Below are positions 27,420-51,457 of a DNA stretch of 64,000 nt, piece after piece. Position 1 is the first letter of the stretch; every line of letters begins with the position of its first letter. Where the stretch lies: the NCBI GenBank assembly GCA_963764665.1, contig CAVXTL010000016.1, positions 438 through 64,437 of the forward strand, given 5' to 3'. A program made the position numbers and the translations under genes. This DNA comes from an uncultured Thermoleophilaceae bacterium (GTDB taxonomy: Bacteria > Actinomycetota > Thermoleophilia > Solirubrobacterales > Thermoleophilaceae). Below the pieces are notes generated by a model. That model did not search any database. It was not told the DNA's origin and worked only from the letters and a program-made list of their open reading frames with translations.

Positions 27420-29885
27420 TTGAGCACCCTTCGCTACCTCGAGGGCGTCGGGCTGTTGATCGTGACCGTGGGCCCGGTGGCGTTTGGCGCCCGCGAGCTG
27501 CGCCGGCGCCTCCTTCCCGGCTGGGCCGGAGCCCCGGCCTGGGTGGCCGACACGGTCCTCGCCGTCGCGATCCTGATCGCGGTGGCCGAAGTGCTGGGCA
27601 CGGCCGGCCTCCTCCAGCTGGCGCCGCTCGTGATCGCCTGCGTGGCGGCCGGCGCCGCCACGGCCGTGCTCGCCCGGCATGGCGGCGGCGGGGAGCGGCG
27701 GGGGCCGCTCCTCGCGCCCGCCGTTCCCACCGGCCGGCTCGGAATCGTCGCGGCCTGGGGCTCGGGGGCACTGGTCCTCGCCCAGTGGAGCGCCCGCGTG
27801 GCCACCGAGTTCGACCGCGGGATGACCACGCCCGACACGATCTGGCAGCACCTCCCCGCGGCCGCGCGCTTCGTCCAGGACGGCTCCATCCGCGACCTCC
27901 AGTTCTTCGACCGCGAGCCGTTCACCGTCTTCTACCCCTTCCACTCCTCCCTGCTCCATGCCGAGGGGATGCTGATCTTCGGCAGCGACGTCCTGTCGCC
28001 GGTGATCAACCTTGGCTGGCTCGGCTTCGCCCTGCTCGCCGCCTGGTGCGTCGGACGGCCGCGAGGCGTCGGGCCGGCCTGCGTCGTCGCGGTCGCGCTC
28101 GTGCTGGGCTCGCCGATCCTCGTGACCACCCAGGCCGGCGGCGCGTACACCGACGTCGTGGTGATCGCGCTCGTGCTCGCCTCGCTGGCGCTGCTCGCGA
28201 ACGGCGGAGTGCGCGGGTCGCCGCTCGTGCTCGCCGGCGTCGCCGCCGGTCTCGCGCTCGGGACGAAGTTCACCCCGATCCCGACTGTCGCGGCCCTCAG
28301 CGTGGGCGTGATCGCCCTCGCGCCGAGGGGCCGGCGCCTGCGGACCGTGGGCGTGTGGGTGGCGGCCCTCGTGCTCGCCGGAGGCTTCTGGTACGGGCGC
28401 AACCTGATCCACACGGGCAGCCCGATGCCCGCCTACAAGATCGATCTCGGCTTCTACGCGTTCCCGGACGTGGAGCATCTCCTTGTCCCGCGCGAGACCG
28501 TGGCCTCCTACCTGGACGGCGCCGACACCCGGCGGGCGTTCGTCGAGCCCGCTCTGGAGGACAACTTCGGACCGGCGTGGTGGGCGATCATCGCCCTGTC
28601 GCTGGCAGGCATGGTCGCCGGCCTGCTCAGCCGCGACGGTTTCGCCCGGATGCTGGCATTCACGGGCATCGTGAGCGTCGCCGCCTACCTGTTCAGCCCG
28701 CTCGTGCTGGGCACGGAGGGATTCCCCTATCTGCTCAAGTACAACGTCCGCTACGTCACGCTGGCCGTGGCGCTCGGGCTCGTGGCGCTGGCATGCCGGC
28801 CCGGGCTGGGAAGAGGGGCGCCCGGCGCGGCGATCCTGGGCGGTCTCGTGGCGCTCCTGGCCTTCACGCAGGCCGACGACACGCTCTGGCCCACGGCGCA
28901 CTGGCAGACCGCCGTGGTGGTGGGCCCGGCGGCGCTCGCGCTCGCCGCGCTGCTCGGCTGGCTCGGCAAGCGACGGCGCCGGCCAGCCCTCGCCGTCGGG
29001 GCGGTGCTGTTCCTCTTGCTGGCGGCCGGCGGAGCTCTCGTCCACCGGGACTACCTGCGCGACCGCTACACGCGCGCCGCCGCGCTGCGCTTCAAGCTGT
29101 CTCCCGTCGGCGGCTTCTGGGAGTGGGCGCGGAACGTGCACGGCGCCCGCATCGCGATGGCCGGCGACTATCTGACCTACCCGCTGTACGGGCGCGACCT
29201 CTCGAACCGGGTGGACTACGTGGGCCATCGCGGTCCCCACGGCGCGTTCCTGCCGATCGACACGTGCCCGGAGTGGCGCCGGAACCTCAACGCGGGGCAC
29301 TTCCAGTACGTGGTCACGACGCGCCTGCCCGAGGATCTCGAGGGCGCGCCGCCCGCGGACCGCTGGACGCGCTCCGACCCGGCAGCCACGCCGATCGCGA
29401 CGAACGCGGTCGCGGACGCGGGGCACGCGGCGCTCTTCCGCATCGACGGGTCATTCGATCCGGGCGCATGTCCCAAGCCGCGACTCGCGCTCGTGGGCGG
29501 CGGCGATGGCCGCCTGATCCGCCTCTCCTCCGGTGCCGAGATCCCGATCCGGCCGGACGCGGTGACCGGGTTCGTGGAGTCGGTCACTGCCCCGTCGGGC
29601 AGCGTTCAGGTAAGCGGGTGGGCCGCCGACGGGAAGCTGCGCAGCCCGGCCCGGCGCATCCTGGTTCTCGACGGCGGGCGGGTGCTGGCCGCCGGCGTCC
29701 CGACGCTCGACCGGCCTGACGTAGCCGGCAGCATCGGGCCGGGCGCCGGGCGCTCCGGGTTCCGCATCGTGTTCGAGGACCCGCGCACCACAAAGCTCAC
29801 CGAACCCGGGCGACTGCGGGTGTTCGCGCTGACCGACCAAGCCGCCTCGGAGCTCCCGCGGCTCGACCAGGAGCCAGGCGGCTAG
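27420..29885 (+). CDS. Large polytopic membrane protein, putative GT-C-type glycosyltransferase with C-terminal extracytoplasmic domains
   Basis: 821 aa. The TTG start is preceded by GGGAG. About 14 hydrophobic helices span the first 520 or so aa, followed by a soluble region of about 300 aa. The context is a glycosylation island. The family was not verified. Confidence 0.55.
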   Translation: MSTLRYLEGVGLLIVTVGPVAFGARELRRRLLPGWAGAPAWVADTVLAVAILIAVAEVLGTAGLLQLAPLVIACVAAGAATAVLARHGGGGERRGPLLAPAVPTGRLGIVAAWGSGALVLAQWSARVATEFDRGMTTPDTIWQHLPAAARFVQDGSIRDLQFFDREPFTVFYPFHSSLLHAEGMLIFGSDVLSPVINLGWLGFALLAAWCVGRPRGVGPACVVAVALVLGSPILVTTQAGGAYTDVVVIALVLASLALLANGGVRGSPLVLAGVAAGLALGTKFTPIPTVAALSVGVIALAPRGRRLRTVGVWVAALVLAGGFWYGRNLIHTGSPMPAYKIDLGFYAFPDVEHLLVPRETVASYLDGADTRRAFVEPALEDNFGPAWWAIIALSLAGMVAGLLSRDGFARMLAFTGIVSVAAYLFSPLVLGTEGFPYLLKYNVRYVTLAVALGLVALACRPGLGRGAPGAAILGGLVALLAFTQADDTLWPTAHWQTAVVVGPAALALAALLGWLGKRRRRPALAVGAVLFLLLAAGGALVHRDYLRDRYTRAAALRFKLSPVGGFWEWARNVHGARIAMAGDYLTYPLYGRDLSNRVDYVGHRGPHGAFLPIDTCPEWRRNLNAGHFQYVVTTRLPEDLEGAPPADRWTRSDPAATPIATNAVADAGHAALFRIDGSFDPGACPKPRLALVGGGDGRLIRLSSGAEIPIRPDAVTGFVESVTAPSGSVQVSGWAADGKLRSPARRILVLDGGRVLAAGVPTLDRPDVAGSIGPGAGRSGFRIVFEDPRTTKLTEPGRLRVFALTDQAASELPRLDQEPGG

Positions 29886-30964
29886 GCCACACTGACCGTG
29901 ATCCGCTCCACCGCGTTGTTCACGTAGCCCTTCAGGTTCCAGCGCGGATCGAGCGGCTGCACGTTGCCGGCGGAGTCGGTGGCCCGTGAGCAGACCTCGT
30001 GGGTGCCCTCGGGCGCTTGCCAGTCGAACGTCCACATGAGCCACGCCGCCTCCGACACCGGCTCGCCGAGCTCGGCATCGCCGAAGGTCGCGCCGCCGTC
30101 GACACTCACCTCGACCCGCGTGATCTCGCCCTGCCCGGACCAGGCGCGCCCGCGGAGCTCGACCGGGCCCGGCTCCAGCGAGCGCTCGCGGCTCAAGAAC
30201 TCCGGCACTCCCGGAGGAACGAGGAGCGAGCGCGGCAGCATCCTGGACACCGGCGCGCCCGGCGCGCCGTTCTCGTCGTAGAGCCGGTAGGCCACAGAGT
30301 TCTGGTACCCGTCGAATGGCTCCGCGAGCGCGGTCACGCGGGTCAGCCACTTGACGTTCGTCATGCCGTACCACTGCGGCACCACGAGCCGCAACGGGAA
30401 GCCGTGCTGGGGCGGCAGCGGCTCGCCGTTCATCTCGTATGCGAGCAGGGCGCCGGATTCGAGCGCGTCCTCGATCGACAGGCTGCGGGCGTACGCCTGT
30501 TGCGTGCCGCCCTCGACCCCGCGGTCGAGTCCGGTGAAGAGCACCTCCGGCGCGGCCTCTGCGACCCCGGCCTCCTCGAGCACTCCTCTGAGGGGCGTTC
30601 CGCCCCACTCGGCGGTGCCCACGGCCTCCGTGAGCCAGGGCTGGCTCAGCGGCCGCGGCGCGAGCAGGGCCCGTCCGTTGCCGGCGCACTCGAACGTCAC
30701 TGGCAGCGTCACCTTCGGCAGGGCCCGGAGGGCGTCCAGGTCGAACGAGAGCGGCCGCTCCACCTCGCCGTCCACCTCGAGGCGGAAGTCCGCCGGGTCG
30801 ACCGCGGGAATGTCGTAGTGGATCAACAGGTAGTGAAGCCCCGCGGGTGTGATCGGGTCCCGCAGCGCCTCGAGCGGCAGCCCGTGGTTGCGGGCGGCGA
30901 GGCGGAGCTCCTCGGGCGTGATCTGATCGGAGGCGATCGTTCCGGTCGGCGGTGGGTCCGTCAT
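29882..30964 (-). CDS. Sulfite oxidase-family molybdopterin oxidoreductase (no signal peptide)
   Basis: The Mo-ligand motif is FECAGNGR. It also has the pattern PLRLVVPQWYGMTNVKWL and a C-terminal dimerisation/Ig-like domain. The ATG at 30964 is 10 nt after the upstream stop. Confidence 0.85.
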   Translation of the reverse strand: MTDPPPTGTIASDQITPEELRLAARNHGLPLEALRDPITPAGLHYLLIHYDIPAVDPADFRLEVDGEVERPLSFDLDALRALPKVTLPVTFECAGNGRALLAPRPLSQPWLTEAVGTAEWGGTPLRGVLEEAGVAEAAPEVLFTGLDRGVEGGTQQAYARSLSIEDALESGALLAYEMNGEPLPPQHGFPLRLVVPQWYGMTNVKWLTRVTALAEPFDGYQNSVAYRLYDENGAPGAPVSRMLPRSLLVPPGVPEFLSRERSLEPGPVELRGRAWSGQGEITRVEVSVDGGATFGDAELGEPVSEAAWLMWTFDWQAPEGTHEVCSRATDSAGNVQPLDPRWNLKGYVNNAVERITVSVA

Positions 30965-30974
30965 CGCGGGGATG

Positions 30975-31403
30975 CTAGGCCCCCGCCGGATCAAGGTCCA
31001 CGCGCACGACCAGGAGGTCGGTGCCCATCAGCCGCACGGTGGCCACGTTGACCGTCGAGCGCCTGCGAGTGCGCGCGATCGCATCCAGCCGCTGCCGCGG
31101 ATCGTCATCCGGAAGCGTCCGAGCCGTCCCCGCGAGCCAGCGCCGCCCGATTCGGATGCGCACCCGCGGGTTCGCCTCGATGTTCAGCACATAGGCGGCG
31201 CGGCGGCCGTGCTCGGCGACGATCCAGAACACATCCCCGTCGAGCCCGTCGGTGACCGGGTTCTGACGAACCCGGCCGGACTTCCTCCCCACGGTCTCGA
31301 GAATCGCGGTACCCGGCACCGGAACACCAAGCCGAAACAGCGTCCGCACCAACGGATTGAACGCGTACTTGGCAAGGCTCGTGGCGAACCATCGCTTGCT
31401 CAC
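30975..31403 (-). CDS. Deazaflavin (F420H2)-dependent nitroreductase/DDN-family oxidoreductase
   Basis: 142 aa from the GTG at 31403. The sequence FNPLVRTLFRLGVPVPGTAILETVGRKSGRVRQNPV...WIVAEHGRRAAYVLNIEANPRVRI is typical of the split beta-barrel DDN family. Confidence 0.72.
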   Translation of the reverse strand: MSKRWFATSLAKYAFNPLVRTLFRLGVPVPGTAILETVGRKSGRVRQNPVTDGLDGDVFWIVAEHGRRAAYVLNIEANPRVRIRIGRRWLAGTARTLPDDDPRQRLDAIARTRRRSTVNVATVRLMGTDLLVVRVDLDPAGA

Positions 31404-31489
31404 ATCCCGAAGTGTGCCGTTCCTGCCGTGGAAGGGCGGCGACGGCTGACGCCGGAGCGCAAGCCCGACCCCTGGGCCCCGAGAACCGA

Positions 31490-33013
31490 CTACGAGTGCA
31501 GGGGCTCCTTCATCGAGTCCGTCTCCGGAGCCTCGATGTAGGGCTGCTGCTCGTCCTGGTTCTCCTCCTCGTGATACGCCGACTCGGCGTTCACGGCCCA
31601 GATGTCGTGCTCGGTGCCCTTGACGAGGTTGTCCACCGCGCGCATGGCGGTGAGCATCGAGTGATCCGAGTTGTTGTAGCGGTGGAGCCCGTTCCGGCCG
31701 ACCTGGATGAAGTTGTCGAGGCCGTCGAGCCACGAGCGGATCGCGTGCACGCGCTCGGAGTAGTCGGCGTCGTACATCGGGTACGCCTTGGGCACGCGGA
31801 CGACGAAGCCGAACTCGAGCTGCTCCTTGCGGGCGAGGCCGAGCTGCTCCAGCTCACGCATTCCGAGGTCGATGAGCTTGTCGTCGTCCATCTCCCACAT
31901 CTTGTCGCCGGCGAAGCAGAAGAACTCGAGGCCGACGCAGGCCTTGCTCGGGTCGGGCACCATCCACGGGCTCCAGGAGCGGAAGTTCTGGATCCGGCCG
32001 ACGTTGACCTTCGGGTCGTGGATGTAGATCCAGTTGTCCGGGAAGAGATCCTCCCCGTCGAGCACCACCGAGACGGTGAGGAAGTCGCGGTACCGGAGCC
32101 CGCGCGCGGCCGCCATCACCTCGTGCTTGGGCGCCGGATCGGCCATGCCCACCGTGTTGCGCAGCGGCAGCGAGGAGATGACCGCCGAGGGCTCGAACGA
32201 CGTGCCGTCGCTCACGTGCACGCGCACGCACTTGGAGCCGTCGAACTCGAGCCGGGTGACGCGGTGGTTGAGCAGGACCTTCCCACCGATCTGCTCGATG
32301 TCGGTGGTCATCTGCTCCCACATCTGCCCGGGGCCGTAGCGCGGGTAGTTGAACTCGGAGATGAGGCTCGTGACCTTGTCGCCGCGGTTGCCGAAGAACG
32401 CAGACCAGGCGGCGCGGAAGAACGACAGGTTCTTGATCCGCTGGGCGGCCCAGTCGGCTCGGATCTCGGACGTGGGCACGCCCCAGACCTTCTCGGTGTA
32501 GGACTTGAAGAACTGGTTGAAGAGGAACTTGCCGAAGCGGTTCGAGACCCACTCCTCGTAGGTCTCCTCCTTGCCCTTCGGCTTGACGGCGGCCCAGAGA
32601 TAGGAGAGCAGCGCCCTGGTCAGGTCGATCGGGCCGAGCTTCTTCATCACGTCCGGGCCGCGCAGCGGGTAGTCGAGGAACTTGGCCTCGCCGTGGCGGT
32701 CGCGCCAGTAGATGCGCGACATGCGCGGACGCTTGAGGAACTCCTCCTTCATGATCTCGTGCCAGAGGTCGTCGACCTCCTGGACCTTGGTGAAGAAGCG
32801 GTGTCCGCCCAGGTCGAAGCGGTAGCCGTCCCGGACCGCCGTCTTGGCGATCCCGCCCACCTGGTCCTCGGCCTCGAGGATCACCACGGGCAGTCCCTGC
32901 TTCGACAGGAGGTATCCGGCGGTCAGGCCGGCTGGCCCCGCGCCGAGGATGACCGTCGGCTTGGTACGGAGCTCGGGGTTGGCAAGCTGGGGCTGTCGGC
33001 TGTCGTGGCTCAT
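31490..33013 (-). CDS. FAD-dependent oxidoreductase, UDP-galactopyranose mutase-like
   Basis: The dinucleotide fold motif is VILGAGPAGLTAGYLLSKQGLPVVILEAEDQVGG. The C-terminal VGRNGLHRYNNSDHSM resembles the UGM tail motif. The ATG at 33013 overlaps the stop of the GT-C gene (ATGA). Confidence 0.78.
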   Translation of the reverse strand: MSHDSRQPQLANPELRTKPTVILGAGPAGLTAGYLLSKQGLPVVILEAEDQVGGIAKTAVRDGYRFDLGGHRFFTKVQEVDDLWHEIMKEEFLKRPRMSRIYWRDRHGEAKFLDYPLRGPDVMKKLGPIDLTRALLSYLWAAVKPKGKEETYEEWVSNRFGKFLFNQFFKSYTEKVWGVPTSEIRADWAAQRIKNLSFFRAAWSAFFGNRGDKVTSLISEFNYPRYGPGQMWEQMTTDIEQIGGKVLLNHRVTRLEFDGSKCVRVHVSDGTSFEPSAVISSLPLRNTVGMADPAPKHEVMAAARGLRYRDFLTVSVVLDGEDLFPDNWIYIHDPKVNVGRIQNFRSWSPWMVPDPSKACVGLEFFCFAGDKMWEMDDDKLIDLGMRELEQLGLARKEQLEFGFVVRVPKAYPMYDADYSERVHAIRSWLDGLDNFIQVGRNGLHRYNNSDHSMLTAMRAVDNLVKGTEHDIWAVNAESAYHEEENQDEQQPYIEAPETDSMKEPLHS

Positions 33014-34587
33014 CCGCTCTTTTCGTAGATAACTCCGCGCACTCCGATTCGCGTGGCCCGGCGGTAGAAGGGAGGCACGACGGCCACGCGCTCGAAGCGC
33101 TCGTCGCTCGCCAGCGCTCCGCCCCATTGGGCCGAGCGACGCCTCACGAGCTCGGTCCAGGGCGAGTCCCAGTCGTCCACCCGCGTAGTAACCGGATGCA
33201 CGATGAGGACGCGACCGCCCGCGGGGAGCCTAGCAAGGAGCGGCTCCAGGTTTTTGGCGGTGGTGGCGTCCTTCATGCGGTCGTAGCCGTCGGTCCAGTC
33301 CATCACGCGGTCGTTCTTGACGGGCCCCATCGCGTTGGCGAACGTGAGCTTCGGCGCGCCCCCGAGGCGCTCGAGGTGGTACTCGAGCAGCGGCCCCTGC
33401 TCGGGTTGCATGGACAGCACGAGGTCGCCCTTGCGGAGCTCGGGCACCGACGCCACGCGCAGGTCCGCGGCGTTCGACTTGTTGGTGAGCCCGAACGTCC
33501 GCGGGATCGCCCAGATCCCGAGCACGATCACGAGGGCCACCAGCCCGAGCTTGCCGGCCCGGGCGAGCCCGACCGCGCTGACGAGCAGGAGCGGCCCGAG
33601 GATGACCCCGAGATAGCGGGTCGTCCACGCCGGCGAGACCTGGGACACGATCCATGCGACCGCGAGCGTGGCCAGCGGCACGAGCAGCCCCGCGATCACG
33701 GCGCTGCGCTCCCTGTCGTCCACGCGCCGCTGGAGGATCACCGCTATCCCCGAGCCGCCGGCGAGCAGGAGCGCCACGGTGGGCGTGCCGCCGCCGAGGA
33801 GCCCCTTCGAGATCTGCACGGGCGCGCCGAAGTTGGGCGCGTTCAGCCAGGGGGCGCCGGTGTGCTGGATCTGGTGCAGCAGCGTGGGCACCCAGGGCAG
33901 GTAGAGGACACCGACGCATCCGAACCCGATCAGGGCGTCACGCACGAACGCGCGGCGGTCCGCAGACACGTACCAGCAGGGCACGAGCGCGACTAGCGAC
34001 CCGGCGGCCATGAAGAGCCCCCAGTTGTGGGTGTACACGAGCAGGGCGAGGAAGATCACGAACGCCGGCAGGTATGAGCGCCGGCGGAAGGCGAACACGT
34101 GCAGGAAGGCCGCGGCCGTGAGCAGCGAGAGCAGCAGCATGAGCGAGTACATGCGCGTCTCCTGGGCGTAGTTCGTGAGGAAGGGGTTGACCGCGCAGAG
34201 CGCGGCGCAGATCAGGCCGGCGCGCCGTCCGAAGAGGCTCCAGCCGGCCCACATACCGCCGGGGATCGTGAGCAGCGCGATCACCATCGAGAGGCTCTGC
34301 GTGTCGGCGGGGCCGTCGCCGAACACGTCGATCCAGACCGACAGCAGCATGTAGTAGAGCGGCGGCGAGCCGTCGACCCGGAGCACGCCGGGGATGTCGA
34401 ACAGCGGCTGGGAGGCGATCCCGATCGACAGCCCTTCGTCCATCCAGAGCGACTCGCCCAGCGACTTGGTGCGCAGGTACAGCGAGGCCGCGAACAGGAC
34501 GAAGAGCACTGCCGCAGGGACGAGCAGACCCGTGGAAAGCGGGCCTACGCTCGGAAGGGCACGGGCGCGGGACGCGACGCTTGCCAC
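33010..34587 (-). CDS. GT-C fold glycosyltransferase, family 39 / PMT_2-like
   Basis: 526 aa from the GTG at 34587. The first-loop motif is SLWMDEGLS. It has about 11 helices and a C-terminal soluble domain. The upstream part of the 848-aa track ORF is non-coding shadow. Confidence 0.75.
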   Translation of the reverse strand: MASVASRARALPSVGPLSTGLLVPAAVLFVLFAASLYLRTKSLGESLWMDEGLSIGIASQPLFDIPGVLRVDGSPPLYYMLLSVWIDVFGDGPADTQSLSMVIALLTIPGGMWAGWSLFGRRAGLICAALCAVNPFLTNYAQETRMYSLMLLLSLLTAAAFLHVFAFRRRSYLPAFVIFLALLVYTHNWGLFMAAGSLVALVPCWYVSADRRAFVRDALIGFGCVGVLYLPWVPTLLHQIQHTGAPWLNAPNFGAPVQISKGLLGGGTPTVALLLAGGSGIAVILQRRVDDRERSAVIAGLLVPLATLAVAWIVSQVSPAWTTRYLGVILGPLLLVSAVGLARAGKLGLVALVIVLGIWAIPRTFGLTNKSNAADLRVASVPELRKGDLVLSMQPEQGPLLEYHLERLGGAPKLTFANAMGPVKNDRVMDWTDGYDRMKDATTAKNLEPLLARLPAGGRVLIVHPVTTRVDDWDSPWTELVRRRSAQWGGALASDERFERVAVVPPFYRRATRIGVRGVIYEKSG

Positions 34588-34634
34588 CGGGCGATCGTAG
34601 TGATTCGTGCGGGCGTTTCGGCGCCCGGCGCGGG

Positions 34635-36221
34635 TCAGGCCGGCGGCGGCGGAGCCGTCGGAGCGTCCCGCCCCGCACGCGGACACGCGGCTCCCCCGGG
34701 CACCTGCGGCGCGGTGAGCAGACGCCACTTGCCCTTGGTGGCCACGAGGCGGAAGCGGTCGTCGGTCGGCTTGACCACGAGCGGGCCGTCGGGCACCGTC
34801 CGGGTGCGGAACACCGCGCCCGGCGCGGGCGTGACGATCGACCCGACCTGGATTCCGTGGAGGTGGAGGTGGTAGGCCACCAGCTGCGTCTGGAACGGGC
34901 CGCTGAATGCCTGGCCGCACGCCACGATGCGGTCGCGCCCGCCCGCCTGCTCGATCAGGCCCTTCAGGTCGTGCCACAGCTGGGCCTCGTGGCGAAGCCC
35001 CCCGGACACCCTTCCGGTGTTGTCGGCCTTCTCGACGATGAACGGTGAGAAGATCGCCAGCGAGACGAAGAAGGCCCCCGCCGCGGTGAGCGCGCCGGCG
35101 CGCTCGTCCTTGAACGCGCGCGCGCCGAGCCAGCCCACTCCCTGGAGAACCCGCGCGGCGCCCAGTCCGCCGAGCACGCACACGCCCGCGGTGGTCACGA
35201 TCAGGTAGCGCTGGTTGCCGGCGAACCCTGCCTCGGTCATCCCGGCCACGAGCGCGAACCAGCCGAACGAGCCGGCCGCGACGGCAAGGGTGAGCCCCTC
35301 GCGCCGGTGCTTGACCCACATGTAGAGCGCGTAGAGGAAGCCGATGATGATGCCGAGCTTCACCGGCGCGATCACCACCTTGCGGAAGCGGCTGATCAGC
35401 TCGAGCGCGGGGTGCTCGGCGAAGGCCGCGCTGCCGGGGTTCGGGTTGTTGGCCCGGGCGCCGGCCCGGAAGGGGTCGCCGGAGCCCCACCACTCGGGCA
35501 GGAACCAGAGCGCGGGAACGAGTGCCGCCAGCATCACTAGGCGCGTGCGCAGCCACGGCTCGGCGAACCAGAGCCAGAGCCCGTAGAGCCCGAGGAACGG
35601 CCAGACCTCGGGGCGCAGCAGCGCGCCCGCGAAGGCCAGGTAGAGAGCGTGGTCGCGCCGCCCGTCAAGGTGCCGCTCGAAGGCCCAGAGCACGAGCGCC
35701 GCGAGCAGCGCCTCCGAGTTCCCGAGCGCCGCGTCGCGCACGAACTTGAAGCTCGAGAACAGCGCCAGCGCGGCGAAGGTCCCGGCCAGCACGCCGTACC
35801 AGCCGCCGCCTATCAGCCGGCGCGCCACCCGGTACGTCATCACGCACGCGAGCAGGCCTCCGGCCCGTGCCACGATCAGCCACAGGTAGGGCGCCACGTC
35901 GTCCCCGAACACCGAGAACGGCGTCGTGAAGAGGATCGGCAGCGGCTTCCAGGACGGGCCGCCCTCCGTCACGAGGTCGAGGTGAGCGATCTCGCGGCCC
36001 CACATGATCCAGGCCCACGGGTCGTAGGTGGGCGTGGAGGGAGTGACCAGGCTGATGGCCGCCACCACGAGGCAGACAGCGATCAGCACGGGCATCGAGC
36101 CGCCCCAGCGGATGAGCTCGCGGACGAGGGCGGGCCTGCCGTCGCCGGGATCGGACCGCGGGCGGGCGGGGTCCGAGTCCCGCCGGCGCAGCGGACGCAG
36201 CTGTGCGGCGGGCGCCCGCAT
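34635..36221 (-). CDS. Polytopic membrane protein, putative GT-C-like glycosyltransferase
   Basis: It has about 12 helices (MPVLIAVCLVVAAISL...YDPWAWIMWGREI...) and a C-terminal soluble domain of about 120 aa. The start is either the ATG at 36221 or the ATG at 36095. The family was not verified. Confidence 0.55.
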   Translation of the reverse strand: MRAPAAQLRPLRRRDSDPARPRSDPGDGRPALVRELIRWGGSMPVLIAVCLVVAAISLVTPSTPTYDPWAWIMWGREIAHLDLVTEGGPSWKPLPILFTTPFSVFGDDVAPYLWLIVARAGGLLACVMTYRVARRLIGGGWYGVLAGTFAALALFSSFKFVRDAALGNSEALLAALVLWAFERHLDGRRDHALYLAFAGALLRPEVWPFLGLYGLWLWFAEPWLRTRLVMLAALVPALWFLPEWWGSGDPFRAGARANNPNPGSAAFAEHPALELISRFRKVVIAPVKLGIIIGFLYALYMWVKHRREGLTLAVAAGSFGWFALVAGMTEAGFAGNQRYLIVTTAGVCVLGGLGAARVLQGVGWLGARAFKDERAGALTAAGAFFVSLAIFSPFIVEKADNTGRVSGGLRHEAQLWHDLKGLIEQAGGRDRIVACGQAFSGPFQTQLVAYHLHLHGIQVGSIVTPAPGAVFRTRTVPDGPLVVKPTDDRFRLVATKGKWRLLTAPQVPGGAACPRAGRDAPTAPPPPA

Positions 36222-36230
36222 CAGGGGTGG

Positions 36231-37247
36231 CTAGGCGACTGTGTCCGTGGCCGCGCGGGCGCGGGGTGGGGTTGGGTCCGCGACCTCGCCCACGCCGCCC
36301 GACTCGAGACGGAAGGCCGAGCGCAGGCGGGACCAGCCGCCGTAGCGAGTGACCAGGATCACGAGCCCGACGATCGTGATCGGGATGTAGAGGACGAAGC
36401 GCAGCAGCAGCATGTACGTGACCGCCATCGAGCCGCTGGCCCCGAGCCGGCGTGCGCCGAACGCGACGGCGGCGTCGAAGGTGCCGATCGACCCCGGAGC
36501 GGCGGGAAGCGCCGCGACGAAGTTCGTCAGCGCGACGAGGTAGAGCGCGCCGGTCACGCTGAAATCCAGGTCGACCGCGTATGCAACGGCCAGGTACACG
36601 GCCGCCTCGACCGCCCAGAGCACGAAGGTGCCGGCCAGCAGCAGCGCCCCGCCGCGTCCGAGCAGGGCGCGCGGGGAGTCGGCGAGCGGCCTCAGCCAGT
36701 CCCGCGCGCGATCGAAGACGTGGTGGGTGCGCATGAACCACAGCACGATGCCCGCGACCACCAGCAGCACCACTCCGGCTCCGGCCATGACCACCGGCCG
36801 GTCGGTGGGCAGCACGCTCGAGCTGAGCGCGCCGTAGACCACGACGACGAAGATCACGGCCAGCGCGAGCAGGTCGAGGATCCGCTCGGCTACCACCGAC
36901 CCGAGCACGGTGCGCTTGCTCGCGTCGCAACGGCCCGAGAGCAGCACGACCTTGAGCGCCTCGCCGGCGCGGGCGGGCAGCACGTTGTTCCCCATGTAGC
37001 CGACGACGGTGAGCGCATACGAGTCGGTTCGCGAGGGCCGGACGCCGGTGAGGCGCAGGATGCGGTACCAGCGCTCGCCGCGCATCAGCGTGGCGACCGC
37101 GTAGAGCAGCAGCGCCGCGCCCAGCCACAGGTAGGAGGACGCCTCGTGCGGGAACGTGGGCGCTTCCTGCCGCGAAGCCCACCAGACCACGGCGGCGAGG
37201 GCGACCAGCGAGATGACTCCTTGGATGAGCGCGAAGCGTCGGTTCAT
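36231..37247 (-). CDS. Lysylphosphatidylglycerol-synthase-TM (MprF flippase-like, UPF0104) domain protein
   Basis: 338 aa from the ATG at 37247. The sequence RGERWYRILRLTG...YMGNNVLPARAGEALKVVLL is typical of PF03706-type proteins. It has 8 or so helices. Confidence 0.75.
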   Translation of the reverse strand: MNRRFALIQGVISLVALAAVVWWASRQEAPTFPHEASSYLWLGAALLLYAVATLMRGERWYRILRLTGVRPSRTDSYALTVVGYMGNNVLPARAGEALKVVLLSGRCDASKRTVLGSVVAERILDLLALAVIFVVVVYGALSSSVLPTDRPVVMAGAGVVLLVVAGIVLWFMRTHHVFDRARDWLRPLADSPRALLGRGGALLLAGTFVLWAVEAAVYLAVAYAVDLDFSVTGALYLVALTNFVAALPAAPGSIGTFDAAVAFGARRLGASGSMAVTYMLLLRFVLYIPITIVGLVILVTRYGGWSRLRSAFRLESGGVGEVADPTPPRARAATDTVA

Positions 37248-37420
37248 GGAAGGGACTCGGCGCCCGGACTGCTCGGAGGGCGAAGTACCTGCGCAGCCGC
37301 AACCGGCCGCGGGAAGCCGATCGGCGGGCTTCACGGTAGCAGCAGCACCCCCCTGCCGGAAGACCCTGGAGGGCCGGTTCGGCTGAGTCTGACGCTACCC
37401 TCCGGCGCCGTTTCTCCGCC

Positions 37421-39415
37421 GTGCGCGCACTCCTCTCCTCCACCCTGGCCCTGCTCGCGCTGACCGTCGCGCTGCCGGACGCTGCGCGCGCTCAGGTGGG
37501 CGCGCCCGAACCCGGAACGCCCCAGCCCGCACCGGAGCTCGAGGTCCAGGCGCCGACCAAGCGCCTGCTGGTCCGCGAGGGCCAGGACGGACGGCTCCTG
37601 CTCGGGGGCCGTTGGTACTTCCGCCAGGACGACCTGTTCGTGGGCGAGGCCCAGGGCTGGTATCGCCAGCGCGACCTCGCTGGCTGGAGCCGTGAGCGCG
37701 TGCCGAGCAGCTGGAACGCCCAGGACCTCGACCAGAACCGCGCGAGCGTCGGCTGGTACCGCAAGGAGTTCACGCTGCCCGAGGCGCCGAAGGACGTGCA
37801 GCGGTTCTGGAAGGTGCGCTTCGAGGGGGTGAACTACCGCAGCACCGTCTGGCTCAACGGGCGCAGACTCGGGAGCTTCGTGGGCTACTTCCCCTTCGAG
37901 CTCGATCTCACCGGTCTGCGCCGCGGCCGCAACACGCTGGTGCTGAAGGTCTCGAGCCTGCGCGGCCGGACCGACCTGACCCACTGGCGCCCCGCGCCTT
38001 TCAACGGCTTCGGCACGGGCGGCTGGTGGAACTTCGGTGGGATCCTGCGGGAGGTCTACGTACGGCCGATCGACACGATCGACGTCCAGGATGTGCGTGC
38101 GCTTCCGCGGCTCGACTGCGTCCGCTGCCGGGCGCGCGTGGCCGTGCGCACCACCCTCCGCAACCTCTCCGGCAAGCCGCGCGACGTGGCGCTGACGCTA
38201 CGCGTGCGCGGACCCGGGCTGGACGAGCGCATCGCGCTGAAGCCGCAGCGGCTGGCCGCGCGCACGCGGCGCGAGATCGGCACGCGGGTCGACATCGCGC
38301 GCCCGAAGCTGTGGCAGCCCGGGAGCCCCGTGCTCTACACGCTGTCCGCCTCGGCGGAGACGGTGGAGCCCAAGCGCAAGAAGCAGAAGGAACCCGAGCT
38401 GGTGCGCCGCGGCACGTACCGCCTGAGCTTCGGCGTGCGAAAGCTCGAGACCCGGCGCGGCGTGCTCTATCTGAACGGGCGTCGCCTGCGCCTGCGCGGT
38501 GCCAGCATCCACGAGGACGACATCGTCACCGGCGGAGCGCTCACTTCTGCCACGCGCTCGTCCCTGGTGCGCCGGCTCGTGGACCTCGGAGCGACGGTCA
38601 CCCGCGCGCACTATCCGCTGCATCCGGCGTTCCTCGAGGCCTTCGACCGGCTCGGCATCCTCTACTGGGCGCAGGCGCCGGTGTACCAGCTGCCCAACTC
38701 GTTCTTCGATCTGCCCGCGGTGCGCGCCTCGGCCACGAGGGCGGTGCGGCTGACGGTGGAGAACAACCTCAACCACGCGTCCGTGTTCGCCTGGTCGCTC
38801 GTGAACGAGCCGGCCGGCAGCAGGTCGGAGCTCGGCCGGATCGGCCCGGGGCTCGAAGCCTTCATCCGCGACGGCGCCGCCGCGGCGCGGGAGATCGACG
38901 ACACCCGGCTGATCGCAATCGACCGCCAAGCACGCGACGGGGAGCCGCTCACCTCGCCCGCGTACCGGTACCTGGACGCCCTCGGAGTGAATGAGTACTT
39001 CGGCTGGTACGACTCGTACCGCCCCGACCTGGTCCGGCCGCCCACGACCACGGCCGAGCTCGGGCCGTACCTCGACGCGCTGCACCGCGCCAACCCGGCC
39101 CTCCCTCTGGTGATCACCGAGTACGGGGCCGAGGCGTCGCGTCCCGGCCCGGTCAGCGAGCCGGGCAGCTACCAGTTCCAGACGAAGTACACGATCGACC
39201 ATCTGCGGATCCACAACTCCAAGCGCTACATCGCCGGCTCGATCGCCTGGGCGCTGCGGGACTTCCGGGTCGAGCCCGGATGGCGCGGCGGCGCGCCGCT
39301 CGCCTACGCGACTCCCCCGTGGAACAACAAGAGCCTGATCGAGGAGACGAACGTGCGGAAGCCCGTGTACTCGGAGCTGCGCAAGCGCTGGCGGAACACG
39401 AGGCCGCTCGGGTGA
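37421..39415 (+). CDS. Secreted glycoside hydrolase family 2
   Basis: The signal peptide is MRALLSSTLALLALTVALPDAARA. The GH2 sugar-binding pattern is WYRKEFTLP...VRFEGVNYRSTVWLNG. The TIM-barrel motifs are WSLVNEP (acid/base) and ITEYGAEA (nucleophile). Confidence 0.85.
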   Translation: MRALLSSTLALLALTVALPDAARAQVGAPEPGTPQPAPELEVQAPTKRLLVREGQDGRLLLGGRWYFRQDDLFVGEAQGWYRQRDLAGWSRERVPSSWNAQDLDQNRASVGWYRKEFTLPEAPKDVQRFWKVRFEGVNYRSTVWLNGRRLGSFVGYFPFELDLTGLRRGRNTLVLKVSSLRGRTDLTHWRPAPFNGFGTGGWWNFGGILREVYVRPIDTIDVQDVRALPRLDCVRCRARVAVRTTLRNLSGKPRDVALTLRVRGPGLDERIALKPQRLAARTRREIGTRVDIARPKLWQPGSPVLYTLSASAETVEPKRKKQKEPELVRRGTYRLSFGVRKLETRRGVLYLNGRRLRLRGASIHEDDIVTGGALTSATRSSLVRRLVDLGATVTRAHYPLHPAFLEAFDRLGILYWAQAPVYQLPNSFFDLPAVRASATRAVRLTVENNLNHASVFAWSLVNEPAGSRSELGRIGPGLEAFIRDGAAAAREIDDTRLIAIDRQARDGEPLTSPAYRYLDALGVNEYFGWYDSYRPDLVRPPTTTAELGPYLDALHRANPALPLVITEYGAEASRPGPVSEPGSYQFQTKYTIDHLRIHNSKRYIAGSIAWALRDFRVEPGWRGGAPLAYATPPWNNKSLIEETNVRKPVYSELRKRWRNTRPLG

Positions 39416-43613: not shown

Positions 43614-43844
43614 CGTCTTGGTCGGGCTCCGTAGTTCGGGAAGCGGAGGAGGCTAGCAGAGGTGTTGCCACAATGTGACCGTTGGGCCCCCGTCCCGGCA
43701 GGCTTCGCCCGGCTGTGTGAAAGCCCTGCAAAAACGAGGTAAACACCGGCTCCTCGCGACCCGCGTGCGGGGGTCACCGTGTACCCCATTCGGGGGCGTC
43801 TCGGCCCTTCGCCGCCCATGCGGTCTTTACGCTACGCCCAGCAC

Positions 43845-44927
43845 ATGAAGCTGATCATCCAGATCCCCTGCTTCAACGAGGAGGAGACCCTTCCCGGCAC
43901 CCTGGCCGACCTTCCCCGGGAGGTACCCGGAATGGACTCCGTCGAGTGGCTCGTGATCGACGACGGGTCGACCGACCGCACGGTGGACGTCGCGCGCGAG
44001 CACGGCGTGGACCACATCGTCCGTCTCACGAACAACCGCGGCCTTGCCGCCGCCTTCCAATCCGGGCTCGACGCCTGCCTCAAGCTCGATGCCGACGTGA
44101 TCGTCAACACCGACGCCGACAACCAGTACCAGGGCGCCGACATCGTGCTCCTGGTCGAGCCGATAGCCGCGGGCAAGGCCGACATGGTCATCGGCGACCG
44201 GCAGACGGACACGATCGCCCATTTCTCGCCCATCAAGAAGTGGCTCCAGCGCTTCGGCAGCGCGGTGGTGCGGCGCGCCTCCGGGACCAGCATCGCCGAC
44301 ACCACCTCCGGGTTCCGTGCCTACAACCGGGAGGCCGCGCTTCAGCTGCAGGTGGTCTCGAAGTTCACGTACACACTCGAGTCGCTGATCCAGGCCGGGA
44401 AGATGCTCGTGGCGGTCGAGCACGTGCCGGTGCGGACCAACGAGCAGACCCGCCCGTCGCGCCTGTTCCCGTCGATGTGGTCGTACGTTCGCCGCAACGG
44501 CATCTCCATCTTCCGGATCTACGCGCTGTACGAGCCGCTGCGGGTGTTCGTGGCGGCCGCGGCGTTCGTGGCCCTTTTCGGTGTGGTGCTCTGGGTCCGG
44601 TTCGCCTGGTTCTTCATCGAGGGCGAGGGCGACGGCCACATCCAGTCGCTGATCGTCGGTGCCACGCTGTTCATCGTCGCCGTGCAGCTGCTCGCCCTCG
44701 GAGTGGTAGGCGACATCCTCGCCGGCAGCCGGGTGCTCCAACAGCGGATCCTCGAGCGCGTCCGCCGGGTGGAGCTCCAGCTCGGCGTCGAGCCCTCGCA
44801 CTACGAGCCGGGCAGGACGCAGGGCGAGCGGGAGGCCACCACCGGCGCCCAGGCCGGCGCGGCCACCGGCAAGCCAGCCACGCCCGAGGACCCGGCCGAC
44901 CCCACCCGCCAGGCGGTCAAGCTGTGA
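43845..44927 (+). CDS. GT2 polyprenyl-phosphate glycosyltransferase (GtrB/DPM1/ArnC-like)
   Basis: It contains IIQIPCFNEEETL, VIDDGSTDRT, the DXD-like motif NTDADNQ and TSGFRAYN. Two C-terminal transmembrane helices are present, as in GtrB/ArnC. Confidence 0.88.
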   Translation: MKLIIQIPCFNEEETLPGTLADLPREVPGMDSVEWLVIDDGSTDRTVDVAREHGVDHIVRLTNNRGLAAAFQSGLDACLKLDADVIVNTDADNQYQGADIVLLVEPIAAGKADMVIGDRQTDTIAHFSPIKKWLQRFGSAVVRRASGTSIADTTSGFRAYNREAALQLQVVSKFTYTLESLIQAGKMLVAVEHVPVRTNEQTRPSRLFPSMWSYVRRNGISIFRIYALYEPLRVFVAAAAFVALFGVVLWVRFAWFFIEGEGDGHIQSLIVGATLFIVAVQLLALGVVGDILAGSRVLQQRILERVRRVELQLGVEPSHYEPGRTQGEREATTGAQAGAATGKPATPEDPADPTRQAVKL

Positions 44928-51242: not shown

Positions 51243-51457
51243 AAACAAACCGCCCGTACCACCGGGCCAGCGCGTGCCGGGCGGGGGCGGCGACGGCTGT
51301 CGATTACCGAACGAGCAAGCGAAGCGCGCGAGAGCGGTGATTGACGCCGGAGCGCAAGCCCACCGCCCTGGACGCCGGAGCGCGAGCCCTCCGCCCCGGT
51401 CGGTTTCCCCGGCGCCCGATCGGGGCAAACCATCGGCGAGCAACGAGGGAGGAACAG

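Follow-up and report, generated by a model that had tools for sequence, protein, structure and literature searches.

The window, a 64,000-nucleotide stretch of DNA (G000:C16:438-64437) from an uncultured soil bacterium of the Thermoleophilaceae, carries on its minus strand an operon in which the gene of a PRK07208-family flavoprotein stands directly behind genes for membrane glycosyltransferases of the GT-C type. The source genome (G000) comprises 2.95 Mb in 27 contigs, is 83% complete and has a GC content of ~72%; the nearest public loci are those of metagenome-assembled genomes (MAGs) of Thermoleophilaceae and Solirubrobacterales. An earlier note on this DNA had described a GT-C gene, a 507-residue flavin adenine dinucleotide (FAD) enzyme, a DDN-family reductase and a SUOX-family molybdenum enzyme as one cluster. 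Open reading frames were called with the guidance of the GC content at third codon positions (GC3) and translated, and these calls placed all four genes at the positions that the note had given. The functional unit is a different set of four genes, which is conserved across Thermoleophilia/Solirubrobacterales:

36231..37334, minus strand: flippase-like polytopic membrane protein (LPG_synthase_TM / TIGR00374), first gene of the operon; PF03706 E 1.3e-41, TIGR00374 82 bits
34635..36221, minus strand: GT-C-like membrane protein 2 (GTC2), 528 residues, polytopic, without a Pfam family
33010..34587, minus strand: GT-C-fold glycosyltransferase 1 (GTC1), 525 residues, weak PMT_2 match, assigned by fold search
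31490..33013, minus strand: PRK07208-family flavoprotein, 507 residues, NF005548, predicted nucleoside diphosphate (NDP)-sugar pyranose/furanose mutase

The overlap of the GT-C gene with the FAD enzyme, already pointed out in the earlier note, can be read directly in the sequence: the last codons of GTC1 are AAG AGC GGA TGA, and the flavoprotein starts at 33013 with an ATG that forms ATGA with the GTC1 stop codon. Because the gaps further upstream are just 47 nucleotides (GTC2 to GTC1) and 9 nucleotides (flippase-like stop to GTC2 start), the unit is larger than had been stated, and the operon reaches beyond the earlier coordinates to take in the GTC2 and flippase-like genes.

To compare the neighborhoods, 80 loci were fetched by flavoprotein similarity and searched with the window proteins by tblastn; their genes were called by a simple GC3/length heuristic, and some of the MAG loci carry frameshifts. 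We counted 55 Thermoleophilia-type loci, in which the flavoprotein is at least 60% identical (62-86%) and enough upstream DNA is available. A GTC1 homolog lies on the same strand at most 400 nucleotides upstream of the flavoprotein in 48 of these 55 loci and 1.3-2.4 kb upstream in five more, and both GTC1 and GTC2 are found upstream in 51. The 55 loci come from kin genomes and cannot be counted as independent; GTC1 identity among them goes down to 33%, which argues for more than recent shared ancestry. The flippase-like gene is retained in the closest relatives (L008-L015, L043, L118, G087 and G054), and the flavoprotein is present in 76 of the 151 sampled genomes of the order and in all 15 of the genus. 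The link between the flavoprotein and the GT-C genes, which the earlier note had seen at one locus, is thus genuine and holds throughout the order.

The flavoprotein and its relatives

NCBIfam NF005548 (PRK07208.1-4, ‘hypothetical protein’) covers residues 18-491 of the flavoprotein with 658 bits (cut-off 389). The protein also matches Amino_oxidase and NAD_binding_8 in Pfam, and it has no transmembrane segment in its hydropathy profile. It carries GAGPAGL...LEAEDQVGG in its N-terminal part as well as GRNGLHRYNNSDHSM, and these motifs, like the FECAGN of the SUOX protein, are all present as the earlier note had quoted them. It stands outside the curated Glf family of UDP-galactopyranose mutases (UGMs). 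The likeness to UGMs suggested in that note was nevertheless upheld by profile and structure searches, in which UGMs are the best solved relatives by sequence, profile and fold alike. Among PDB sequences the top matches are the A. fumigatus UGM (AfUGM; E 1e-23) and then the T. cruzi UGM (TcUGM). A family profile built from 13 members (Actinomycetota, Chloroflexota, Acidobacteriota, Planctomycetota and Proteobacteria) finds AfUGM at 6e-37, TcUGM at 4.5e-31 and the E. coli-type/bacterial UGM at 2e-15; along its full length it matches UGMs only, whereas amine oxidases, protoporphyrinogen oxidases and phytoene desaturases match its first 60-100 residues, the FAD motif. The AlphaFold model (predicted local distance difference test, pLDDT, 83.7) has AfUGM and TcUGM structures as all of its top 34 Foldseek matches (E ~1e-31, TM-score 0.74-0.84), and in this model the protein is predicted to have the UGM fold of FAD Rossmann, helical and beta-sheet domains. 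By profile and fold, the nearest studied relatives of the flavoprotein are the eukaryote-type UGMs.

In a hidden Markov model (HMM) alignment, the following family-invariant residues of the flavoprotein correspond to AfUGM positions:

H71: AfUGM H63
R192: AfUGM R182
W328: AfUGM W315
Y330: AfUGM Y317
R340: AfUGM R327
Y411: AfUGM Y419
R440: AfUGM R447
Y446: AfUGM Y453
N448: AfUGM N457

The C-terminal block of this alignment has a lower posterior accuracy (0.74). G69, G70, H71, R72 and F73 are invariant in the 13 sequences and align with AfUGM G61-G62-H63, so that the GGH histidine loop, which in UGM adjoins N5 of the flavin (AfUGM H63), is kept in the family. Also retained is the set of Arg and Tyr residues that bind diphosphate and sugar (AfUGM R182, R327, Y419, R447, Y453 and N457). 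Several of the aligned AfUGM positions have mutant structures deposited in PDB (H63A, R182K, R327A/K and Y317A), and they are thus functionally studied ones. We read the flavoprotein as an enzyme of the UGM superfamily, one that very probably binds an NDP-sugar and uses its flavin as UGM does. The retained residues point to a redox-neutral mutase, for whose turnover a separate reductase would not be required.

The family is large, with 2087 clusters at 50% identity (E <= 1e-30). Its members go under the public names ‘protoporphyrinogen oxidase’ (JGI) and ‘NAD(P)/FAD-dependent oxidoreductase’ (NCBI), which are probably wrong or uninformative. No canonical Glf (PF03275) was detected in the 83% complete G000 genome, where the PRK07208 protein is the sole UGM-like candidate seen if the cell makes a furanose sugar.

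It is also evident that the flavoprotein keeps glycosylation genes as neighbors in other phyla. In 21 loci whose flavoproteins are ~50% identical, the 113 neighbor proteins within 3.5 kb include 15 GT2, 6-7 GT4/GT1, 4 PMT_2 and 2 GT87 enzymes, 3 polysaccharide deacetylases and 2 Wzx-like proteins. Fusions were found as well: GT2-flavoprotein (L071, 881 residues) and, among metagenome gene predictions (P0122-P0218), flavoprotein-GT2 (P0122), flavoprotein-GT2-PMT_2 (P0130, 1409 residues), NDP-sugar epimerase/dehydratase-flavoprotein (P0127), GT4-flavoprotein (P0218), GFO/IDH/MocA-flavoprotein (P0129) and flavoprotein-methyltransferase (P0189). The epimerase/dehydratase fusion argues for a nucleotide-sugar substrate, and the fusions with GT2 and GT-C domains argue that the product enters a lipid-carrier route.

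The flavoproteins of other phyla show some further features of their own. P0131, P0185, P0193 and P0213 have 500-600 additional residues without a Pfam match. A C-terminal extension of ~110 residues, mostly with two predicted transmembrane (TM) helices, is frequent (L065:1691-3493, L068:9980-11818, L069:4701-6602, L084:5487-7382, L085:9959-11821 and L087:9971-11785); by hydropathy there are two TM helices in L065, L068, L084 and L085, one in L087 and none in L069. The two-TM module has the motif ATNWLvLKGG..VGP.L.LL.QyFxGY.V...GSL.G..YGF..GF and belongs to no Pfam family. A paralogous free-standing protein with the same motif (~110 residues, likewise without a Pfam family) directly adjoins the flavoprotein gene at L065:3668-3994, L068:11927-12271, L069:6643-6975, L077:9617-9982, L078:7661-7993, L079:4204-4515, L084:7405-7737 and L085:11827-12165. 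The module is absent from the window flavoprotein, and neither module nor partner has a match in the G000 genome. A distant second flavoprotein paralog (25-28% identity) lies 3-5 kb downstream of the main copy in two loci (L077:14481-15836 and L087:16842-18128).

Membrane proteins and a candidate lipid-loading enzyme

The Pfam match of GTC1 is weak (PMT_2, 19 bits, under the cut-off of 26.1). A fold search was used because searches of PDB chains by sequence with GTC1, its family profile and GTC2 gave nothing useful. The AlphaFold model of GTC1 has a pLDDT of 90.4, and its Foldseek matches at E <= 0.001 are all GT-C enzymes, with ArnT (5ezm, E 4e-9) first, followed by OST (STT3)/AglB/PglB, ALG9, AftA, Pmt4, AftD and Emb. 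The predicted structure confirms the GT-C fold that had been assigned in the earlier note. GTC1 could be placed in no named CAZy or Pfam GT-C family, the Pfam score being below the cut-off and the profile search of PDB sequences empty. In its WMDE motif, W48 and E51 are invariant in 20 homologs and D50 is the majority residue; this motif would account for the conserved acidic residue(s) close to where the predicted first extracytoplasmic loop begins.

GTC2 has no Pfam or NCBIfam match and no BLASTP similarity to GTC1. An hhalign comparison of the two families gives a probability of 86% (E 4.6e-6), and scattered members of the GTC2 family match GT87, PMT_2, GT22 and TMEM260-like proteins weakly. 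The GTC2 family, in which YDPW..W..GRE near the first loop is invariant, appears from these profiles to be distantly related to GTC1. The flippase-like protein has ~6 hydrophobic segments.

A candidate for loading sugar onto a lipid carrier lies in the same glycan island, 10.8 kb from the operon:

43779..44927, plus strand: candidate polyprenyl-phosphate sugar synthase (GT2), 382 residues, PF00535 E 8e-23

Two hydrophobic segments lie in the C-terminal part of this protein, at 249 and 286, and its best NCBIfam matches are mostly polyprenyl- and dolichyl-phosphate sugar synthases (AglJ, PpgS, Dol-P hexose transferase, ArnC and PgfS), all below cut-off. It may belong to the pathway of the operon. 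A GT2 also goes with the flavoprotein in other phyla; it has no tblastn match in the window and only 28-31% identity to its best matches in the genome, and the 43779-44927 protein is not its ortholog.

Genes downstream of the flavoprotein

Downstream of the flavoprotein lie the two redox genes that the earlier note had included in its cluster, and a converging gene on the other strand:

31404..31489: spacer of 86 nucleotides between the flavoprotein stop and the DDN start, with one copy of a 20-nucleotide repeat
30975..31403, minus strand: DDN-family deazaflavin (F420H2)-dependent oxidoreductase, 142 residues (PF04075, TIGR00026)
29882..30964, minus strand: SUOX-family molybdoenzyme (Oxidored_molyb and Mo-co_dimer)
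27420..29885, plus strand: 821-residue membrane protein, converging on the SUOX gene and overlapping its stop codon

The family assignments of the two redox genes stand. The DDN protein is above the cut-offs of both PF04075 (E 2.4e-26; 92.8 bits, cut-off 22) and TIGR00026 (78 bits, cut-off 46.35). The F420 pathway, whose absence would have refuted the proposal of the earlier note, is represented in G000 above curated cut-offs by cofD (258 bits), cofE (269 bits) and a fused cofG/cofH (404 bits). This makes F420 available to the cell and the assignment to the DDN family sound. The SUOX protein matches Oxidored_molyb (E 2.5e-57, 193.6 bits) and Mo-co_dimer (65.6 bits), contains FECAGN, and scores under the SorA, SoxC and SorT equivalog cut-offs. 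Its ATG (30964) follows the DDN stop after a gap of 10 nucleotides, as described, and inspection of the N-terminus, made without a signal-peptide predictor, finds neither a hydrophobic stretch nor a twin-arginine motif, in agreement with a signal-less enzyme.

The comparison of genomes gives a different picture of the place of these genes in the system. All 80 related loci lack DDN and SUOX in the vicinity of the flavoprotein, even where the latter is 82-86% identical, and PF04075 and Oxidored_molyb are outside the 25 commonest families among the 113 neighbors in other phyla. Besides G000, just three close genomes (G158, G165 and G087), with flavoproteins that are ~89-91% identical, have DDN behind the flavoprotein. 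The gap between the two genes is 86 nucleotides in G000, ~157 in G087, ~700 in G158 and ~730 in G165, and no open reading frame worth calling was found in the ~700-nucleotide gap of G165. DDN homologs as such occur in 15 of 20 sampled genomes of the same genus. SUOX adjoins the flavoprotein locus in G000 only. Its orthologs are present in all 15 sampled genomes of the genus and are 54-75% identical in 23 genomes of the order; at 29 ortholog loci, no DDN or flavoprotein gene lies within 1.5 kb. In G108, a complete genome in one contig, the flavoprotein (2.95 Mb), SUOX (3.02 Mb) and DDN (2.80 Mb) are 63-213 kb apart.

Moreover, the genes that follow the flavoprotein differ among relatives. Beyond DDN, G000 has SUOX and the 821-residue protein, G158 and G165 have nothing before a sulfatase, and in G087 genes for an RTX/beta-propeller protein and an acyl-CoA ligase follow. 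Among close relatives, the place just behind the flavoprotein holds, for example:

L118:12084-15656: three GH6 genes
L009:11496-12344: EamA transporter
L137:3769-7301: RTX/DUF5122 beta-propeller protein and acyl-CoA ligase

These differences make the stretch behind the flavoprotein a variable slot, which DDN entered in a recent ancestor of the four genomes and to which SUOX moved in G000 alone. The comparative evidence thus shows that DDN and SUOX are recent neighbors and not parts of the system, DDN being a lineage-restricted neighbor that probably lies outside the glycan system. The claim of a non-homologous DprE1/DprE2-like pair of flavoenzyme and DDN loses its footing, since the adjacency is confined to four close genomes, and a molybdenum enzyme in a glycan operon, which had seemed unexplained, is a matter of one genome. 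The window annotation is corrected accordingly: the F420 and molybdenum enzymes are not to be read into the glycan operon.

Some other observations concern these neighbors. In the same genus the SUOX ortholog has gcvPB (glycine dehydrogenase subunit 2) closely on one side and a class-Ib (Trp/Tyr) tRNA synthetase gene closely on the other (L089:477-4065, L093:1-3592 and others among L089-L101), an unusual housekeeping context for a molybdenum enzyme, which the G000 copy has left. The 821-residue protein has ~12 hydrophobic segments, ends in a soluble part of ~280 residues, has no Pfam or NCBIfam match, and is missing from all 80 related loci as well as from G158, G165 and G087; it was considered as a GT-C relative and rejected, BLASTP against GTC1 and hhalign against the GTC1 family both being negative. 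The 20-mer TGACGCCGGAGCGCAAGCCC of the spacer has identical copies at 31447-31466 and 51342-51361 on the same strand, and a third with 2 mismatches at 51370-51389. The spacer copy is antisense to both the flavoprotein and DDN genes, and the two tandem copies stand ahead of a plus-strand gene at 51341; a shared promoter role is doubtful because the orientation to the neighboring genes varies among the sites. A promoter and terminator scan of 29500-37800, uninformative for an actinobacterium of 72% GC, found no sigma-70-like site and a single terminator-like site, beyond the SUOX stop.

Proposed pathway, alternatives and known systems

We consider it fairly probable that the four-gene operon joins a furanose-donor mutase to lipid-linked extracytoplasmic glycosylation, with DDN and SUOX as mere neighbors. 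The soluble flavoprotein, with reduced FAD, would convert an NDP-hexopyranose (probably a UDP-sugar, not necessarily of galactose) to the furanose form, as its retained active-site residues suggest. A polyprenyl-phosphate GT2, for which 43779-44927 is the candidate in the island, would load the sugar onto the lipid carrier; the flippase-like protein (LPG_synthase_TM) would carry the lipid-linked sugar across the membrane, and the two GT-C enzymes would pass it to an envelope acceptor. Ring contraction, the NDP-sugar substrate, the transfer to polyprenyl phosphate, the flipping and the GT-C transfer are all steps that we infer.

Several observations weigh against this pathway. The flavoprotein scores only 36.1 bits on the Glf equivalog TIGR00031 (cut-off 303.75), PF03275 is not among its Pfam matches, and protoporphyrinogen oxidases come close behind the UGMs in Foldseek (TM-score 0.72/0.80). 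Positions that contact galactose and uracil in AfUGM are not kept, N207 being replaced by an invariant I218, N163 by T173 and Q107 by a variable position; the substrate may accordingly have another sugar and perhaps another nucleotide, or the reaction may be something other than ring contraction. The GT2 of other phyla has no ortholog here, and the lipid-loading step is therefore assigned by architecture only. DDN is kept behind the flavoprotein in four genomes, and in the scan mentioned above the spacer between them has no terminator-like site, so that read-through transcription is possible.

Four other explanations were weighed. The flavoprotein could be a true oxidoreductase of the amine-oxidase, protoporphyrinogen-oxidase or phytoene-desaturase type that acts on a lipid carrier or lipid-linked sugar, for instance by oxidizing a sugar hydroxyl or changing the saturation of a polyprenol. 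Its Pfam family (Amino_oxidase), the protoporphyrinogen oxidase and phytoene desaturase structures close behind in Foldseek and the loss of the sugar contacts N207 and N163 would fit; so would the GFO/IDH/MocA fusion (P0129), which hints at nearby redox chemistry, and the two-TM module fused to or following the protein in other phyla, which would have it work at the membrane. However, beyond the N-terminal FAD motif UGMs alone align by sequence, the diphosphate-binding Arg/Tyr set and the histidine loop are invariant across phyla, and the epimerase/dehydratase fusion (P0127) points to a soluble nucleotide-sugar substrate, and we regard this explanation as unlikely. A mutase of UGM type might instead act after the GT2 and contract, at the membrane, the ring of a sugar already bound to polyprenyl phosphate, the lipid phosphate serving as the group that leaves and returns. 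The tight coupling or fusion to GT2 and GT-C proteins, the conserved two-TM anchor, fused or adjacent, in several phyla and the translational coupling to the GT-C gene in the window are all consistent with this order of events, which we nevertheless think quite unlikely: the window flavoprotein has no membrane segment and keeps the residues with which AfUGM holds the UDP diphosphate, a fusion with an NDP-sugar epimerase exists, and no precedent for such chemistry was found in the literature searched.

The other two explanations give DDN a part. In the proposal of the earlier note, the flavoenzyme would oxidize a polyprenyl-phosphate- or UDP-linked sugar and DDN would reduce the keto intermediate with F420H2, so that the two form a non-homologous counterpart of DprE1/DprE2 feeding the GT-C enzymes, with SUOX as an accessory. 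The common strand, the short gaps (86 and 10 nucleotides) without a terminator-like site between the genes, the F420 pathway of the genome and the three further genomes with DDN downstream all speak for it. It is already weakened by the phyletic and synteny data, namely the lack of DDN and SUOX in the 80 related loci even beside 82-86% identical flavoproteins, the occurrence of the flavoprotein in 76 of 151 genomes of the order, the neighbor families of other phyla, the housekeeping context of the SUOX orthologs and the distances of 63-213 kb in G108; the flavoprotein also retains the residues of a redox-neutral mutase. This proposal is very improbable. It is just as improbable that, in the small subclade bearing it, DDN uses F420H2 to keep the FAD of the mutase reduced. 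UGM-type enzymes are active only with reduced FAD, and we know of no established physiological reductant of bacterial UGMs; both points would favor such an activating reductase, as would the F420 pathway and the retention of DDN immediately behind the flavoprotein in four genomes in which the genes after DDN are not the same. Yet the association is limited to four very close genomes, the spacing ranges from 86 to ~730 nucleotides, most of the flavoprotein family in many phyla has no such partner, and DDN-family enzymes are many-copy paralogs in Actinomycetota.

The proposed furanose-donor pathway would have consequences beyond this locus. To our knowledge, furanose sugars are absent from animals, and the enzymes for their synthesis and transfer serve as targets of drugs and diagnostics in mycobacteria, fungi and trypanosomatids. 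The PRK07208 proteins of bacteria form a large, unstudied sister group to the UGMs of fungi and parasites, with a consistent link to the machinery of lipid-carrier glycosylation; if the pathway is true, they would represent a new way to supply extracytoplasmic sugar donors and would explain the substrate of many orphan GT-C enzymes. We suggest more tentatively, as a real possibility that falls short of probable, that the PRK07208 flavoproteins open a hitherto undescribed route in many phyla, where a hexose would be ring-contracted on a nucleotide sugar or directly on a polyprenyl-phosphate sugar, the furanose taken over the membrane on polyprenyl phosphate and added by GT-C enzymes to envelope polymers. 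In a literature search that left most subscription journals outside its coverage, no description of the PRK07208 family or of a lipid-linked hexofuranose donor was found.

Among known proteins, the flavoprotein shares with the eukaryote-type UGMs (AfUGM 3ute/3ukh; TcUGM 4dsg) the three-domain fold, the length of ~500 residues, the GGH loop, the equivalents of R182, W315, Y317, R327, Y419, R447, Y453 and N457, and the C-terminal motif GR.G..RY..N.DHS. It differs from them in having only ~20% identity, Ile for N207, Thr for N163, Trp for Y334 and a variable residue for Q107, and in being bacterial and encoded in operons with GT-C, GT2 and flippase-like genes. The Glf-type mutases are different again: they have ~370-400 residues and PF03275, feed cytoplasmic glycosyltransferases and are not coupled to GT-C genes. 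The dTDP-fucopyranose mutase Fcf2 is a Glf-family enzyme with a substrate other than that of UGM. According to two reports, Glf-family mutases also include a UDP-arabinopyranose (UDP-Arap) mutase and the CDP-fucofuranose mutase of C. jejuni, and thus act on varied NDP-sugars (PMC10615251, PMC12369002).

In its arrangement the island resembles the three-component systems of extracytoplasmic glycosylation (ArnC/ArnEF/ArnT; GtrB/GtrA/GtrC; CsbB/GtcA/YfhO; mycobacterial PpgS/Rv3779), which likewise combine a GT2, a flippase-like protein and a GT-C enzyme. ArnT is the best structural match of GTC1, and the Arn pathway too has a nucleotide-sugar-modifying enzyme encoded with it. Unlike these systems, the operon has two GT-C genes and an MprF-type flippase-like protein in place of a GtrA or SMR-type one, the GT2 is 10.8 kb off and its link to the operon inferred, and the sugar-modifying enzyme is UGM-like, which would imply a lipid-linked hexofuranose donor. 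With the mycobacterial decaprenyl-phosphoryl-arabinofuranose route (UbiA, DprE1/DprE2, Emb/Aft) the operon would share the use of a lipid-linked furanose donor by GT-C enzymes outside the cytoplasm, and AftA, AftD and Emb are among the fold matches of GTC1. However, the donor would arise here by ring contraction of a nucleotide sugar and not by epimerization of lipid-linked ribose; the operon has no VAO-type DprE1, SDR DprE2 or UbiA-type gene, and the DDN protein proposed as a reductase partner is not conserved across taxa. If true, the PRK07208 route would be the hexofuranose counterpart of the mycobacterial decaprenyl-phosphate-arabinofuranose system, spread over many bacterial phyla.

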